Positions 4,708 to 51,763 are shown, counted from the stretch's first letter. The stretch is 64,000 nucleotides of DNA from an uncultured Alphaproteobacteria bacterium (GCA_944393245.1 CALXZM010000004.1:383-64382); one strand, 5' to 3'. Notes: generated from the sequence alone by a model not told the origin. A program made the numbers and translations.

Positions 4708-4856
4708 GAAAATTCAAACCGTCGCAAATGCGGCGGTTTTAATTTTCTGGGTGGCCCGTGCGGATTCAAACGACAAACAGCGGTTTGTCGGGCTTCGAAT
4801 CTTTCACTCGATTTATCGTCAAAAGACGATAAATCTGCGTGTATCATCGTATTTAT

Positions 4857-4968
4857 GCGAACTGCGCTGACGCTTGTTCTTATATACTCGGATTCCCTCG
4901 GCTTATGCCTGTGGGTATCCTCGTAGTTATTCGAACGGCGCTGACGCTTGTTCTCATATACTCGGATT
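4857..4968. repeat. Two ~38-bp direct repeats (period about 73 bp) downstream of tRNA-Pro(TGG). A degenerate copy of the tRNA T-arm/3' end (gggcttcgaatctttc) lies at about 4785-4805.
   Basis: gcgctgacgcttgttcttatatactcggattc and gcgctgacgcttgttctcatatactcggattc. Hairpins cgacaaacagcggtttgtcg and ttatcgtcaaaagacgataa lie upstream. Confidence 0.5.
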
Positions 4969-5169
4969 CGCCGCGATTAAAATATGCTGGCAAGGCCGAA
5001 AACGCGGGATTTTATATTCAAAAATGCACGGTATGTGTTTTTACAATTGCCAAATCCGCCCAAATCTCAGATATGACATTTTATGACAGTCAATTTGAGA
5101 TGTAGGGCGTTTTTGAGTTGACAAATGTACGTATTTGTAATAGTTTTTTTTGAAAAAAGAGGTAAAAAT

Positions 5170-9759: not shown

Positions 9760-9836
9760 GCGCCCTTAGCCCAGCTGGATAGAGCATCGGATTTCTAATC
9801 CGCAGGTCGCAGGTTCGAATCCTGCAGGGCGCGCCA
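9760..9836 (+). tRNA. tRNA-Arg (anticodon TCT)
   Basis: gcgccct/agggcgc acceptor, anticodon loop ttTCTaa, T-arm caggttcgaatcctg and an encoded CCA. The framework is close to bacterial tRNA-Arg. Confidence 0.85.
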
Positions 9837-10156
9837 GAATAAAAATATCACCCAACGGGTGATTTTTTTATTATGATGCAAGCCCCAGGATTTGAACCTG
9901 CGAAAAAGCAGTTCGAACCGCCGCAAAAAGGCGGACGGCAGTACGCCGGTTTGCGTTTAGCAAATTTTGCCAGGTGGCGCAGCAATCCTGCAGGGCGCGC
10001 CAGAATAAAAATATCACCCAACGGGTGATTTTTTTATTATGATGCAAGCCCCAGGATTTGAACCTGCGAAAAAGCAGTTCGAACCGCCGCAAAAAGGCGG
10101 ACGGCAGTACGCCGGTTTGCGTTTAGCAAATTTTGCCAGGTGGCGCAGCAATCCTG
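9837..10156 (+). repeat. Tandem direct repeat: one 166-bp unit plus a 154-bp identical partial second unit. Each unit begins with a terminator hairpin and ends with the last 19 nt of tRNA-Arg (aatcctgcagggcgcgcca).
   Basis: Copy 1 is 9837-10002 and copy 2 is 10003-10156. They are identical base for base until the divergence at 10157. Hairpin atcacccaacgggtgatttttttatt. Confidence 0.85.
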
Positions 10157-10275
10157 GTAGGGCAATGAATAATGTTATACGCCGTGGGCGTTTTTTTATT
10201 GGGAAATCATACCTGGGGCATTTGTGGTGGGGCATATGTTATAATGGTCATGTATAAAACAAAGGGAGTTTTTTA

Positions 10276-44722: not shown

Positions 44723-45931
44723 TTAGTTGCCCAACATATAACCACACCTGTTAACAAGGTTTTGACGCAGGTTTTGTAAACGATTAATCAGTTCATCGTA
44801 TTGATTTGTAGTTGGATTTTCAGGCGTTGTGTACGGGTTTACCGGTTGATTTGTTGATGCGACGACACAGGTGTTACCACTGCGTGTATAACCAGATATA
44901 CAACCCCAATTCCAACAATAATTGGTGGTATCAGGTATGTATTCAATATATGCATCTATGCCCTTGGCGGGTTCGCCAGATTCTGTACAATATCGTGCGA
45001 CACATTCAGGTTGCCAAAAATCGTCTTTCCATAATCCGTTCCACCACCCCGCGGCGGTGTCTGACCAAGTGGATTCGTCTTTCTTTTTCCCCTGTAAACA
45101 TTGACGGACACCCGGTGCGGCGATAACATTAGTGCCGTTTTGTTCCACGCCACAGAACATATAATCACCAATATTTGCCTGGCGTTCGCCTTTATTAAAT
45201 ACCGTATTACAACATGTGAAAGCACCAGTCACAGGATCGTATAAGCAATCTGTTTCTGAAAATACTTGTGAACCAGATATTAAACCGCCAATAATTGCAC
45301 CAGCGGCCGCCCCGATACCAGTGCCGATTACTGGGAATATACTGCCAACCGATGCACCCGCGATTGCACCACTGGCCGCACCACCAGCCACATTCCAACC
45401 GCTGTGTTCGCCCTGGCCGGCGGTTGATGCATATATACCGGCCGCGCCCCCGGCAATGCCCAATGCGGCCCCCACTTTTGCGCCGCGTGACATACTGGAC
45501 CAGTTTGTTCGGGGCCTAGGCGCGGTAGTTGACGGTGCCGACGTTGTTGGCCCAGACGGAGCTGGGGCAGGACCTGGTGTCGGTGTCGACGTTGTTGGTC
45601 CAGACGGAGCTGGGGCGGGACCTGGTGTCGGTGTTGACGTTGTTGGTCCAGACGGAGCTGGGGCAGGACCTGGTGTCGGTGTCGACGTTGTTGTCCCAGA
45701 TGGAGTTGGGGCAGGACCTGGTGTCGGTGCCGATGGTGTTGGTGCAGGTACGGGAACCGCATTTGGCATACCTGTAACGTTTATTAAACGTCCTGTATTT
45801 GCGTCACGCCAACGGTGATCAGAAATGCTCTGTACTGGGATTACGCCAGGGTCATTCCACATTAATGCGTTTGCACCAGAATTAACAAACATCAATGACA
45901 GTATGAAAAAAAATATAACTGTTTTACGCAT
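44723..45931 (-). CDS. Family A secreted protein: signal peptide, 16-aa Pro/Thr-rich tandem repeats, glycine-zipper segment, FSETDC...CCN / CWNWGC module
   Basis: MRKTVIFFFILSLMFVNSGANA; (TPTPGPAPAPSGPTTS)x about 4; GAALGIAGGAAGIYAS...IGTGIGAAAGAIIGGLISGSQVFSETDCLYDPVTGAFTCCN. Paralogous to 1-2156. Confidence 0.6.
   Translation of the reverse strand: MRKTVIFFFILSLMFVNSGANALMWNDPGVIPVQSISDHRWRDANTGRLINVTGMPNAVPVPAPTPSAPTPGPAPTPSGTTTSTPTPGPAPAPSGPTTSTPTPGPAPAPSGPTTSTPTPGPAPAPSGPTTSAPSTTAPRPRTNWSSMSRGAKVGAALGIAGGAAGIYASTAGQGEHSGWNVAGGAASGAIAGASVGSIFPVIGTGIGAAAGAIIGGLISGSQVFSETDCLYDPVTGAFTCCNTVFNKGERQANIGDYMFCGVEQNGTNVIAAPGVRQCLQGKKKDESTWSDTAAGWWNGLWKDDFWQPECVARYCTESGEPAKGIDAYIEYIPDTTNYCWNWGCISGYTRSGNTCVVASTNQPVNPYTTPENPTTNQYDELINRLQNLRQNLVNRCGYMLGN
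45520..45740. repeat. Four tandem 48-bp coding repeats (the Pro/Thr/Gly-rich unit) inside the Family A gene
   Basis: gacgttgttggtccagacggagctggggcaggacctggtgtcggtgtc repeated with single-base variants. Confidence 0.7.
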
Positions 45932-48004: not shown

Positions 48005-50545
48005 ATGGATAAATCGGTTTTAACATTCAGGGAATATAATATAGCAGGCAATGTATTGCGTGCTTATTATGATGCCGATGATAAATTGGTTTTTGTCCTG
48101 GACAGTACGTTGGACGACAGAAAACCGAATGCGCTGTTGGTAATAAATCCGGTTGGTGACAGAAAGTGGGATGATATTTTGGCCAATGATTATGGGGTTG
48201 ATTTAGAAACTGTTCGGCCGAAAAAAAATAACAAATATCAAAAACTGGATATAGAATATGCCGGGTTGGCGGAATATGATAATTTAATTAATGCGTATGA
48301 AACCGGTGGTGATTTGGCGGCTGCATTGGCTGAATTGGCCGGTTTCCGCGAAGAATCTGTACGCCGTGCCGCAACTGAACGTTTGGCGGTGGCAAATGAT
48401 AATGCTGAAAAAGCGCGCGAAACAATTATCAAAACACGCGAATCTATTTCTGAATTACAAACCAAGTTGCGCCAATTACGGGCAAAACTGGCCCAGCAAA
48501 AAAAGCAGGTCGGGCGCGAACCAACAAAAAAATCTGCGTCCAAGATTTTGCGCACTGATGCACAGGTTGATGCCACAAATGAAAAATTGCGTCGCGCAAA
48601 AAAACGTTTGAATAATGCACAGCGTCGTTTGATTGCTGCGGACCAGGATGCTGAAATCGCACGTGGAATTTTGGAACGAAAAAATACTGTGGCGGATGTG
48701 GAAATGAAACACGGTGTTGCGCGGCCACGTCCAAGTGCGGTGGAACCGATTGTTACAACCACTTATAATGTATCTTATGATGATGTGACAGATAATGACA
48801 ATGGTGATGATGATAATGGGCGTGATGATGAATTTCCTGATTCTGGAATTCATTTTTCCACACAAATAGATATGTCACCCAATAATAATATTGTGGCCGC
48901 AGCAGACGCCAACGACGATAACAATGTTGCACGCATGCCGGACACAGAATTTGACAGTGACGATAATTTGGCAGATGTACAAACACAAATCGCAGATGAA
49001 CCAAAGGCGGAAACAATGGCTGATGAACCAGTGAAAAACGAAGAAGAAGTAAAACCGTTGTTTGACAATGATCCAGAAATATTGGACGAAGAAATCGCGT
49101 TTAAGCCCATTAATTTTGGGGTTTCCAGTCCTGTGCCGGATCAGACAGCAGAATCACAACCCAGTGCAGATGTTTATGAAACGGTTGTTGATGAAAAACC
49201 ATTGGCATTTACGCCACCGGTTGATGATGATAAAATCGTTCGGGATTCACCAATAAATGTCAGACCCGTAACGGATGAATTTGGGGAAAATACGGGCAAT
49301 ACAAATTCAGGGCCGGTGTTGGACACTATCAAATCGGTTGAAATGCCCGTGGATAATAATGATTCAAATGTACAATTGGATTCTGAATTAATGTCTGGTG
49401 TTGCGCCGATTCGGCCAGACGTGGAATCTGAACCTGTGCCGGTGCGGCCGGAACCTGTGGCACGGCCAATGGTAAATGAAAACAATATGGGAACGCCTGC
49501 CCCGGCCCCGGTTGCGCCAGATGTGAATGCGGGTGCGCGTCCTGTGCCACCGGCTGCAACGTTGTCAAATGCGGCCGCTGTTGCGCGCCCAATGTCGCCG
49601 ATTACTGGAAATGCGGCACCGACAAATCCGGCACCGCGCAAACCCACGTGGATATACTATGTTATGCTGATTTTATTAATCGGTTTATCAATATTTACGT
49701 TGTGGCTGTATCAGAAAAATACAAATCAGAATGTGCCTGATTTGACGGCAACGGTACCAACTGTACAGGAATCAGAACAAACGTCGCCAGATGTGGATTC
49801 TGATATAGACAGTCCATTTATCGCAGAAATGGATACAAGCGTATCTGATGAAAAAACGCAGATAACGGTTGATGCGCCTGTTGCAGAACCGGTGGAACCA
49901 GTTACGGTTACAGAACCGGTTGTTGAACCAGAACCAGTGCCAGAACCAGAACCTGTTGAAACCGTGTCTGAACCAGTGGTGACGGAACCAGAACCAGTGG
50001 CGGATATAGAAATCACATCAATTGATATGGCACCGACTGAACCGGTTGCTGAACCGGAACCTGTCATAGAAACAGAAGAAGAAATATTGGCCAGCAAGCC
50101 CGCGTATAATGTTTCACAAAACGAAAATATGTTTGTTGCCAGTCCTGAATATGATACTGAAACACTGCGGCAAAACGCCATGCAGGCCGTTGATACGGTT
50201 GGGCCGTCTGTTGTAACATCCAATGATGTTGCAAATGCAAATGTTAATGTGCCAACAACGCCATCAACAAATGTAACGTCTGGGGTGTCAATGAATGCAG
50301 CCCCAGTCGTACTGCAAAATCAGCAGGCGCCAGTGGCCACGTCAAATACAGTCGAAGAATATGTGCCCCAGGCCGTAACGTCGGTTGTATGGGAAGATAC
50401 CGTTCAGAATTTGCCAACGTGTCCAGATGGAACCGCGCCTGATGTTAATGGGTGTTGTGCTGGTGAAGTTTATACCGATATGGGGGAAATGGGATTTAAT
50501 TGTTGTCCAGAGACCGGTGGTGATTGTTTCCCGCCGTTGTTATAA
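48005..50545 (+). CDS. Large acidic single-TM protein with Glu/Pro/Val-rich repeats and a Cys-rich C-terminus (hypothetical)
   Basis: 846 aa. N-terminal coiled coil (ETIIKTRESISELQTKLRQLRAKLAQQKKQ), TM at WIYYVMLILLIGLSIFTLWLY, EPVEPVTVTEPVVEPEPVPEPEPVETV repeats, C-terminal CPDGTAPDVNGCCAGEVYTDMGEMGFNCCPETGGDC. Confidence 0.5.
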   Translation: MDKSVLTFREYNIAGNVLRAYYDADDKLVFVLDSTLDDRKPNALLVINPVGDRKWDDILANDYGVDLETVRPKKNNKYQKLDIEYAGLAEYDNLINAYETGGDLAAALAELAGFREESVRRAATERLAVANDNAEKARETIIKTRESISELQTKLRQLRAKLAQQKKQVGREPTKKSASKILRTDAQVDATNEKLRRAKKRLNNAQRRLIAADQDAEIARGILERKNTVADVEMKHGVARPRPSAVEPIVTTTYNVSYDDVTDNDNGDDDNGRDDEFPDSGIHFSTQIDMSPNNNIVAAADANDDNNVARMPDTEFDSDDNLADVQTQIADEPKAETMADEPVKNEEEVKPLFDNDPEILDEEIAFKPINFGVSSPVPDQTAESQPSADVYETVVDEKPLAFTPPVDDDKIVRDSPINVRPVTDEFGENTGNTNSGPVLDTIKSVEMPVDNNDSNVQLDSELMSGVAPIRPDVESEPVPVRPEPVARPMVNENNMGTPAPAPVAPDVNAGARPVPPAATLSNAAAVARPMSPITGNAAPTNPAPRKPTWIYYVMLILLIGLSIFTLWLYQKNTNQNVPDLTATVPTVQESEQTSPDVDSDIDSPFIAEMDTSVSDEKTQITVDAPVAEPVEPVTVTEPVVEPEPVPEPEPVETVSEPVVTEPEPVADIEITSIDMAPTEPVAEPEPVIETEEEILASKPAYNVSQNENMFVASPEYDTETLRQNAMQAVDTVGPSVVTSNDVANANVNVPTTPSTNVTSGVSMNAAPVVLQNQQAPVATSNTVEEYVPQAVTSVVWEDTVQNLPTCPDGTAPDVNGCCAGEVYTDMGEMGFNCCPETGGDCFPPLL

Positions 50546-51085: not shown

Positions 51086-51162
51086 CGGGGCGTAGCTCAG
51101 CCTGGTAGAGTACTTGCATGGGGTGCAAGGGGTCGCAGGTTCGATTCCTGTCGCCCCGACCA
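51086..51162 (+). tRNA. tRNA-Pro (anticodon GGG)
   Basis: Acceptor cggggcg/cgccccg, anticodon loop atGGGgt, T-arm caggttcgattcctg, encoded CCA. Confidence 0.85.
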
Positions 51163-51582
51163 TAAATAAAAAAGAAACCGCCATCGTGCGGTTTGTTTTT
51201 TATTTACAGTGGGCATAACAGAAGCGACCTTGCATACGCAGTATGCCCAGGTTCGACAACGAGTAGATTTGACCAAGCGATGTATTTTCATCGCGCAGTC
51301 AAATCGTTACGAATGCCCCACAGCCGCAACGATAGTCTAAATCGTTGCGCGCGAGGGATTCCTGTCGCCCCGACCATAAACAAACAGAAAACCGCAGTCG
51401 CGGTTTTTATTTTTGTTTACAGTGGGCATAACGGAAATTGGCCCTGCATTACTGAAAATAATGCAGTGGTTCGACAATGAGTAGATTTGACAAGAGTAAC
51501 GCAGTCAAATCGTTACGAATGCCCCACAGCCGCAACGATAGTCTAAATCGTTGCGCGCGAGGGATTCCTGACGCCCCGACCA
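51163..51582 (+). repeat. Two tandem diverged repeat units of about 210 bp (51163-51376 and 51377-51582). Each starts with a terminator hairpin and ends with the last ~20 nt of tRNA-Pro(GGG) (gattcctgtcgccccgacca).
   Basis: Shared blocks: tttacagtgggcataac, ggttcgacaaYgagtagatttgac, and a near-identical 3' stretch of about 80 nt containing the perfect hairpin cgcaacgatagtctaaatcgttgcg. The middle section has diverged. Confidence 0.8.
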
Positions 51583-51595
51583 TAAATAAAAATGC

Positions 51596-51763
51596 TTACA
51601 ATTGACTGGTTTGAATTATACTGTCGTTTACAATTTTGTCTGTATTTTGATTTTGCTGTTTTTGGTTGATAAGTATCCAGGCTATAATCCAAATACATAA
51701 AATTAAAACCAGTGCCATTAATATATAACGCGAAATTTTAAAAGAATTTGTTTGTAACGCCAT
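51596..51763 (-). CDS. Unannotated 55-aa single-TM small protein
   Basis: MALQTNSFKISRYILMALVLILCIWIIAWILINQKQQNQNTDKIVNDSIIQTSQL. GGGGGA Shine-Dalgarno lies 6 nt before the ATG. It is absent from the ORF track because it is under 60 aa. Confidence 0.3.
   Translation of the reverse strand: MALQTNSFKISRYILMALVLILCIWIIAWILINQKQQNQNTDKIVNDSIIQTSQL

Follow-up and report, generated by a model that had tools for sequence, protein, structure and literature searches.

The tRNA-linked repeats (TLRs) of Escherichia coli were reportedly described by Egan and Landy in 1978 and by Rudd in 1999. They include the 178-bp repeats of tyrT with the RNA RttR (Rfam family RtT, RF00391) and the small RNAs RrA/B/F of rrnA/B/D. 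In E. coli the repeats number 22, spread over ten loci that hold between one and five each; their 3' ends are identical to the upstream tRNA or rRNA over 18-19 nt, and a study from 2021 still gives no known function for them (PMC8144298). The RNA rrB, which derives from the TLR of rrnB, arises from read-through of terminator T1 followed by processing, and the repeat has been proposed to serve as a nuclease recognition element (PMC8144298). Both in that study (PMC8144298) and in Rfam 15, TLRs are confined to the Enterobacteria. Here we analyze a comparable arrangement in DNA from an uncultured Alphaproteobacteria bacterium (GCA_944393245.1, CALXZM010000004.1:383-64382; this stretch of 64,000 nt is referred to below as the window). 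At this locus the gene for tRNA-Pro(GGG) is followed by two repeat units, unit 1 (51163-51376, 214 nt) and unit 2 (51377-51582, 206 nt), each of which ends in a copy of the tRNA's 3' end.

The two units belong to a dispersed, tRNA-linked family that conserves structure, and the tail of each module is the 3' end of the local tRNA, built into the fold. Moreover, polymorphism in the size of the arrays is consistent with recombination between their repeated ends. We hold, with moderate confidence, that these are members of a TLR-type RNA family with a new core, one in which terminator read-through, trimming by tRNA enzymes, and resizing of arrays by recombination go together with some RNA function (the parts that concern expression and function we infer). 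The core is previously undescribed and absent from Rfam 15, and the closest known system is the E. coli TLR/RtT.

The tRNA-Pro(GGG) gene lies on the plus strand at 51086-51162 (identified with ARAGORN, and scoring 59.7 bits with the Rfam tRNA model), and the repeated block is its last 20 nt (51143-51162, plus strand). The units begin at the base immediately after the CCA of the tRNA and are on the same strand. Each consists, in order, of a terminator-like hairpin, the sequence TTTACAGTGGGCATAAC, a variable stretch, the sequence GGTTCGACAAYGAGTAGATTTGAC, and a tail of 91 nt in which the two units are 98% identical; over their whole length they are 87% identical, with insertions and deletions. 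The 91-nt tail contains CGCAACGAT-AGTCTAA-ATCGTTGCG, at 51325-51349 and 51531-51555, and both units finish in GATTCCTG(T/A)CGCCCCGACCA. The final 20 nt of unit 1 (tail 1, GATTCCTGTCGCCCCGACCA, 51357-51376, plus strand) match the end of the tRNA at 20 of 20 positions, and those of unit 2 (tail 2, GATTCCTGACGCCCCGACCA, 51563-51582, plus strand) at 19 of 20. When the 20-mer from the end of the tRNA was searched for in the window with up to two mismatches, four matches were found, against 0.00 expected from 100 dinucleotide-preserving shuffles; the fourth of these is the end of tRNA-Pro(TGG) itself. The initial annotation of this DNA, which had pointed out a two-unit design behind tRNA-Pro(GGG) with each unit recreating the last 20 nt of the tRNA, was accurate in every feature that it described and in where it placed them.

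Several lines of evidence indicate what the units are not. They are non-coding: the 206-214-nt units contain no conserved open reading frame (ORF), and the lengths of loops and hairpins differ among family members by non-multiples of 3. In Rfam searches the tRNA was the sole family matched at the locus, with nothing else at gathering score and nothing credible at E≤10. (Matches to STnc370, STnc240, Leu_leader, and tmRNA_permuted in the search at E≤10 are far below threshold and were dismissed as noise; the tmRNA_permuted match, at 11.8 bits and E 6, overlaps tRNA-Pro(GGG) itself.) Likewise, ARAGORN and the tRNA and tmRNA models called the true tRNA alone and left the units unmatched. Nor do the units resemble miniature inverted-repeat transposable elements, as their ends change with the local tRNA rather than forming constant terminal inverted repeats, and the sole flanking duplication is the tRNA end plus terminator. 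We also considered and dropped IS200/IS605 elements, integron attC sites, group II introns, and a Mg2+ riboswitch upstream of corA, given the lack of defining features, of an Rfam match, and of a constant neighboring gene.

Copies of the core occur in related genomes. A scan of one genome per species with two anchors taken from the core gave ten loci in eight metagenome-assembled genomes (MAGs) of gut Alphaproteobacteria, one of them Candidatus Enterousia avistercoris; within the window, nhmmer found no additional copies of the Pro(GGG) core. In the genome scan the core was found behind Pro(GGG), Pro(CGG), Ser(GGA), Arg(ACG), and Gln(TTG) tRNAs, and a metagenome scan, which gave three near-identical loci, added Ser(CGA) as a sixth tRNA species. 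In addition, the core follows a Ser-type tail on a stretch that lacks a tRNA. One MAG, CALXMC, has the core behind two different tRNAs (L012 and L019). The core follows the pattern GGTTCG..AA..AGTAGATTTGAC-loop-GTCAAATCGTTACG..T.CCCC.CAG-hairpin-CGAGGGA, with the GGTTCG invariant across all members of the family. In all relatives whose contig includes the tRNA the module is directly 3' of it, and the module is on the strand of the tRNA in every case, whatever the neighboring genes. It ends in the local tRNA 3' end, including at the Arg(ACG), Ser(GGA), and Gln(TTG) loci and with the exception of the Pro(CGG) cases. There are between one and three units per locus (L013 has three in tandem behind Pro(CGG)). 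In most relatives the order is tRNA, terminator, module, terminator; in the species of the window there is no terminator 3' of tail 2. The presence of the same core behind six tRNA species in eight related genomes, usually with the local tRNA 3' end, bears out the earlier suggestion that the pattern reflects a family and not coincidence.

The related sequences all come from gut MAGs labelled uncultured Alphaproteobacteria. The uncultured order Rs-D84, to which Enterousia is assigned, consists of bacteria with reduced genomes (PMC12306168; taxonomy), and the host of the window is an uncultured gut alphaproteobacterium, probably from a lineage related to that order.

Structure is conserved well beyond the 20 nt derived from the tRNA. 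Units 1 and 2 fold far better than shuffled sequences (z scores of -7.1 and -5.5), and an alignment of 14 distinct core and tail sequences defined three helices, P3, P4, and P5. P3, which pairs GUAGAUUUGAC with GUCAAAUC..UAC, is invariant. P4 pairs GAAU.CCC with GGGAUUC and incorporates the five bases with which the tRNA-derived tail begins. At the position of P5, at least seven unrelated perfect hairpins have been swapped in, and its columns show C-G, G-C, A-U, and U-G pairs; in L003, L010, and L011, for example, the hairpin GGCACA-TTC-TGTGCC replaces CGCAACGAT-AGTCTAA-ATCGTTGCG. Over the three helices 98.1% of 316 cells are paired, versus 47.8% or less after the partners were shifted by 1-3 columns, and none of 500 shuffles reached the observed pairing or covariation score. 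Furthermore, P4 switches between A-U and U-A in step with the T loop of the local tRNA (GATTC versus GAATC). Because P4 uses the first five bases of the tail and switches with the T loop of the tRNA, the tRNA-derived tail belongs to the fold and is not a mere appendix. Note that testing the tail for mimicry of a T arm and acceptor stem had been suggested; the tail is not detected by the tRNA or tmRNA models, and instead enters a fold particular to the module, through P4 and a predicted closing stem.

In unit 1, P3 is formed by 51263-51273 with 51298-51310 (with an additional inserted hairpin at 51277-51294), P4 by 51311-51318 with 51355-51361, and P5 by the hairpin at 51325-51349, the first five nucleotides of tail 1 supplying part of the 3' strand of P4. 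These helices lie in and around the conserved core (51257-51356, plus strand), which starts at a T-loop-like GGTTCGA motif (51250-51256, plus strand). Upstream of the motif are the terminator T1 (51163-51206; an A-tract, a hairpin with its stem at 51175-51194, and a T-tract), the 5' arm CAGTGGGCATAACAGAAGCGACCTTGC (51207-51233, plus strand; in the folds it is predicted to pair with the tail through GGGC/GCCC and ACAG/CUGU), and an apex hairpin, GCATAC-GCA-GTATGC (51232-51246, plus strand). Unit 2 has the terminator T2 (51377-51419, stem 51387-51408), the 5' arm CAGTGGGCATAACGGAAATTGGCCCTGC (51420-51447, plus strand), and an apex hairpin that differs from that of unit 1, CTGCATTA-CTGAAAA-TAATGCAG (51444-51466, plus strand). 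The GGTTCGA motif of unit 2 (51468-51474) and its conserved core together span 51468-51562 on the plus strand, with P3 at 51481-51491 and 51504-51516, P4 at 51517-51524 and 51561-51567, and the P5 hairpin at 51531-51555. Both T1 and T2, the latter likewise made up of an A-tract, a hairpin, and a T-tract, score as terminators on both strands.

The resemblance to the TLRs of E. coli extends to many aspects of this design. In both systems the repeats are directly 3' of a tRNA and on the same strand, finish with 18-20 nt identical to the end of the upstream RNA, and occur in tandem, the number of units here being within the range of one to five per locus. Moreover, in both a shared core is dispersed behind different stable-RNA genes, each copy with the local 3' end (PMC8144298). 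As in RtT, GGTTCGA is followed by the core and then by the rest of the T loop, the T stem, the acceptor strand, and CCA, and the predicted closing stem here, between the 5' arm and the tRNA-derived 3' end, has a counterpart in RtT. The succession of terminator, module, and terminator is like that of T1, rrB, and T2 at E. coli rrnB (PMC8144298). In contrast, the cores of the two systems are unrelated in sequence, a tpr-like ORF is absent here, the host is an uncultured gut alphaproteobacterium rather than an enterobacterium, and an intrinsic terminator precedes every unit, whereas there is none at tyrT. Expression, processing, and binding of Hfq and CsrA are known for the E. coli RNAs alone.

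The 5' arm provides a further parallel. In minimum free energy (MFE) folds the 5' end of the module pairs with the tail in eight of ten members, and at Arg(TCT) (z score of 9.3), Arg(ACG) (7.5), E. coli Tyr (6.7), and Gln (5.2) the arm is plainly a copy, antisense and imperfect, of the whole 3' half of the tRNA. When pooled over members, the pairing of arms with their cognate tails exceeds that of permuted combinations (5 of 5000 permutations). (Duplex energies of arms with cognate versus foreign tails were uninformative, as G-rich arms pair with any C-rich tail.) The terminator is the center of a long imperfect palindrome that spans the 3' half of the tRNA and the 5' arm, and whose arms at the Arg locus are 47 nt long and 79% complementary and at the Pro locus, where they form an inverted repeat, 26 nt long and 85% complementary. 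On the 3' side of the arm come the apex hairpin, GGTTCGA, the core, and (G)ATTCC...CCA, an order from which the module reads as a sense copy of the 3' half of the tRNA broken after the TTCGA of the T loop. A shared CTTGCAT had suggested that the 5' part is a decayed tRNA 5' half; we dropped this idea and read the part instead as the 3' half copied in antisense, a relationship that is unambiguous at Arg(TCT), Arg(ACG), Gln, and E. coli Tyr. A primer-binding site of the retroviral kind was also ruled out, as the arm is imperfect, bulged, and without a complement of CCA.

The E. coli repeats have the same construction. Each 178-bp repeat of the tyrT locus consists of GGGGAAGGATGAGAAGCTTC (the antisense arm), AAGGTTCGA, the core, and ATCCTTCCCCCACCACCA, and in the Rfam RtT consensus the E. 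coli 5' arm GGGGAAGGAU is paired with AUCCUUCCCC of the end derived from tRNA-Tyr. The annotated E. coli RttR ends exactly at CCA. In E. coli K-12 the tyrT/tyrV TLRs (1286700-1287620, L024) likewise have a split T loop (AAGGTTCGA, core, ATCC...) and carry an antisense arm, GGGGAAGGAT..., and the tyrT-tyrV spacer is itself an RtT copy (four Rfam matches).

Which strand might be transcribed can be judged from substitutions and from orientation. Among the helix cells that are not Watson-Crick there are nine G-U and two A-C pairs, which favors the plus strand. Ten single-nucleotide polymorphisms (SNPs) distinguish nine type 2 units (type 2 being that of unit 2), five in predicted helices and five at unpaired positions; of those in helices, four are transitions that retain pairing as G-U and one is a transversion that breaks the terminal pair of the apex hairpin. 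The plus strand is also favored by the orientation of the module, which is that of the tRNA in every genome. Taken as sequence patterns, these features favor a plus-strand RNA. An alternative is that the relevant transcript is that of the minus strand, namely the structured 3' untranslated region of a convergent 55-codon ORF (51596-51763, minus strand) or a small RNA starting from a promoter-like site at 51642-51615 (CAGACA-16-TATAAT, 10/12), ending at the bidirectional terminators, and carrying 20 nt antisense to tRNA-Pro. The site lies within the 3' end of this ORF, which has a hydrophobic center, is called in ten of ten strain contigs, and converges on unit 2, with no terminator between its stop codon and unit 2. 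No other promoter-like site could drive the units on its own, both hairpins score as minus-strand terminators, and the fold of the Pro(GGG) units is slightly better on the minus strand. However, promoter-like sites are no more common here than in shuffled sequences (5 versus 3.2 ± 1.8), the G-U and A-C counts and the SNPs favor the other strand, and it is on the plus strand that the units end in an exact tRNA end with CCA. Furthermore, terminators flank the module on both sides in other species, where its neighbors differ, yet the orientation relative to the tRNA is always kept. We consider a minus-strand transcript very improbable.

In the reading that we favor, that of a TLR-type RNA family, each unit comprises a 5' arm, a variable apex hairpin, GGUUCGA, a core of ~100 nt with P3, P4, and P5, and the last 20 nt of the local tRNA, and the remainder of the tail, past the part used in P4, would pair with the 5' arm and leave NCCA free. 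Because the promoter scan revealed no plus-strand promoter-like site inside the units, the modules would be transcribed from the promoter of the tRNA, as 3' extensions of a strongly expressed tRNA that arise by read-through of the intrinsic terminator. Since their 3' end is identical to that of the tRNA and is embedded in a helix, the nucleases of tRNA end maturation may then free and trim a discrete RNA ending in CCA, by analogy with RttR and RrA/B/F of E. coli. The 3' external transcribed spacer (3'ETS) small RNAs, such as 3'ETS-leuZ, are similar in being by-products of a tRNA transcript that tRNA processing sets free (PMC8144298), as we suppose for the modules, but are unique spacers, which lack a copy of the tRNA end and are neither repeated in tandem nor built on a dispersed core. 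Finally, the number of units would shift through homologous (unequal) recombination between the repeated segments of tRNA end and terminator.

This last step could be compared with the variation among strains. Exact-protein look-up with AcpS gave ten strain-level contigs, of which seven carry a single type 2 unit (two of these with deletions), one (L009) a type 1 unit alone, and two (L003 and L010) both types as in the window. Since each type occurs alone in some strains and together with the other in others, types 1 and 2 are two circulating variants that are joined or lost via recombination, and the initial annotation's view of the diverged copies as the product of an older event is too simple. 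Every single-unit form has the terminator and tail variant predicted by deletion between the repeated tails; the double form could equally stem from unequal crossover. Smaller changes were also evident. In L001 the terminator hairpin is precisely gone (40 nt) so that the module abuts the tRNA directly, in L007 a deletion between ATCGTT(A/G)CG repeats has resulted in the loss of P4 and P5, and the distal tail 2 is the copy most polymorphic among strains (GATG and GCCCA variants). In L008, a 5-nt deletion turns the encoded end of the tRNA from CCA into CCC.

A second array in the window, at the tRNA-Arg(TCT) locus (9760-10168, plus strand), is informative in the same respect. Here the tRNA (9760-9836) is followed by two 166-nt units (repeat 9818-10156) that are 100% identical and whose core, which we designate A-type, is unrelated to that of the Pro(GGG) units. 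In other strains (L025-L029) the locus has one or two units, with variant hairpins, although such copy numbers are to be read with the caution that metagenome assemblies can collapse repeats and that three contigs terminate inside the Arg array. The final tail of the array is a decayed copy of the tRNA end in all strains compared, and the strain with a single unit likewise ends in a decayed tail, AATCCTGGTGGGGCAATGAA. Given this decayed end in the single-unit strain, the exact tRNA end within the two-unit array merely marks where a recent unequal crossover joined the units; the two-unit form is the exact product of a crossover within AATCCTG. The A-type core recurs in L015, and further core types are found in L016 and L019. 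(These further, unrelated module types, at 1031-1400 of L016, at 6473-6830 of L019, and in L015, lie behind tRNA-Arg(ACG), tRNA-Gln(TTG), and a Ser-type tail. Two different module types can sit in tandem at one locus, both ending in the same tRNA 3' end.)

Several observations weigh against the TLR-type RNA reading. The RtT model (RF00391), which gives 133-138 bits on the E. coli positive control, does not match the units at its threshold of 45 bits or even at E≤10. The tails of the L013 and L018 modules differ from the end of the adjoining tRNA-Pro(CGG). For Pro(GGG), the similarity of the arm to the antisense tRNA half has a z score of only ~2 (2.1 for unit 1), and the complementarity of arm and tail is no better than chance (z ~0). 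Both terminators appear efficient, the comparison of strands by MFE is ambiguous, with the minus strand more stable for the Pro(GGG) units, and the transcription, strand, and processing of the units are all inferred from sequence. Shortened copies exist (the second unit in L011, L017/L020, and L007), so that any constraint is weak or lineage-specific. Moreover, the strain data show no sign of purifying selection: nucleotide diversity in the type 2 module is 0.019, versus 0.003-0.014 in adjacent genes and spacers, and is thus not lower.

Some of these observations are what would be expected if the units were functionless structured DNA, produced by fold-back or template-switch copying of the 3' half of a tRNA at its terminator followed by tandem duplication, and kept as neutral or selfish sequence whose RNA is incidental. 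The long palindrome centered on the terminator, at both the Arg and the Pro locus, fits such an origin, recombination alone accounts for the changes in copy number, diversity in the module is not reduced among strains, and shortened and decayed copies are common. Nevertheless, we judge this explanation to be unlikely, for it leaves unaccounted for a core of ~100 nt that is conserved over at least eight species and six tRNA types, the swaps of one P5 hairpin for another, the A-U/U-A switch in P4, and the bias toward G-U over A-C. Nor does it account for retention of the modules in a clade with strongly reduced genomes (PMC12306168). The finding of copies in eight genomes, with structure kept far past the tRNA-derived 20 nt, disposes of the outcome that the initial annotation had named as fatal to the idea of a family, namely that neither further copies nor further structure would be found.

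The units had also been proposed to be elements that target the 3' ends of tRNA genes. Integrases that target tRNA genes classically leave an identity block that reaches from the T loop to CCA, and the 20-nt block seen here fits this footprint. The units might accordingly be relics or non-autonomous partners of integrative elements, that is, attP-like units without cargo that depend on a tyrosine integrase in trans and whose 20 nt are the attachment (att) block. Like the att scars of integrase islands and cis-mobilizable remnants, the segments are bounded by a direct repeat of the tRNA 3' part and vary among strains in presence and copy number; the same core is found behind different tRNAs, and the size of a unit is about that of a complete attP. 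However, a direct repeat of the 3' part of the tRNA is common to att scars and TLRs and does not discriminate between them. Unlike att scars, the segment lacks both integrase and cargo, has no relatives among phages or plasmids, and constitutes a conserved RNA-like fold. In particular, neither the units nor their flanks contain an integrase or transposase, and the units had no matches among viral contigs, phages, or plasmids. The core of such an attP would have to change with each tRNA while the arms stay ~90% identical, and keeping the potential for a P5 hairpin without its sequence is a signature of single-stranded structure rather than of sites for proteins that bind duplex DNA. The exact internal tRNA end at the Arg locus, moreover, is explained by simple unequal crossover. 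A genuine island junction has a different appearance: in L025 (~1300-1370, a variant of the window at ~9760) tRNA-Arg(TCT) is preceded by unrelated sequence, from its anticodon loop leftwards, and identity begins at GATTTCTAATCCGCAGG, so that the identity block runs from the anticodon loop of the tRNA. Such a boundary has the look of the far end of a genomic island that integrated at this loop. (The adjoining genes in L025, of 280 and 201 amino acids, had no Pfam match.) The proposal of mobile DNA aimed at tRNA 3' ends thus finds no support in these data, and we regard descent from integrative elements as improbable.

The initial annotation had counted three tRNA loci in the window with this pattern. 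Two of them, Pro(GGG) and Arg(TCT), are clear. At the third, Pro(TGG), the tRNA's own 3' end has no copy when up to 2 mismatches in 16 are allowed, and a degenerate T-arm fragment alone is present, TTCGAAT-CTTTC (z score of 2.8), so that the locus is at best a decayed relic. (The stretch 3' of tRNA-Pro(TGG), at 4708-4980, has a terminator followed by strongly folding sequence, with a z score of -6.1, that includes TTCGAAT-CTTTC. Also 3' of this tRNA, a 35-nt direct repeat, GCGCTGACGCTTGTTCTyATATACTCGGATTC, occurs in two copies at 4866-4900 and 4938-4972.) The remaining four tRNAs in the window are followed by plain terminators.

The genes neighboring the Pro(GGG) locus are those for S1, adenylate kinase, CorA, AcpS, and GcrA, and near the other loci are genes for arginase, GNAT, MFS, TspO, and Dus proteins. 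Beside gcrA, at 48005-50545, is an 846-codon ORF whose product would be acidic, rich in Pro, Val, and Thr, and equipped with one hydrophobic segment, and which has no Pfam match. Further upstream, at 45533-45742, a 48-nt sequence is repeated in tandem in 4.4 copies with 91% matches; as 48 is divisible by 3, the array may encode repeats in a protein.

The feature is genuine and non-coincidental; it overturns nothing, and it broadens a 45-year-old puzzle, that of the TLRs. In practice, such units can pass for att scars or tRNA pseudogenes, and they break metagenome assemblies, as in the three contigs that end within the Arg array. What the modules share with the TLRs of E. coli is a plan, in which the fold incorporates the tRNA end, a T-loop motif precedes the core, the arrays can be resized, and a core is found behind different tRNAs. 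That the same plan recurs with unrelated cores in a distant gut lineage suggests that the principle is general rather than an oddity of the Enterobacteria. The shared plan also makes a common origin, or hopping, testable by comparative genomics of cores, tRNAs, and the matching of arms. We raise, as a speculative and on present evidence doubtful extension, that TLR-type modules are a general, cross-phylum class of hitchhiking elements built on this common plan. A fold-back copy of the 3' half of a tRNA, antisense and then sense, may form across the terminator palindrome; a structured core may come to sit after TTCGA, where the T loop tolerates insertions; and cores may then hop by recombination at the GGTTCGA and GA(A/T)TCC sequences of the T arm, which are universal, inheriting arms that match the new tRNA. 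If this were true, the modules would be self-retargeting RNA/DNA parasites of tRNA transcription and processing, and the origin of the E. coli TLRs would be explained.

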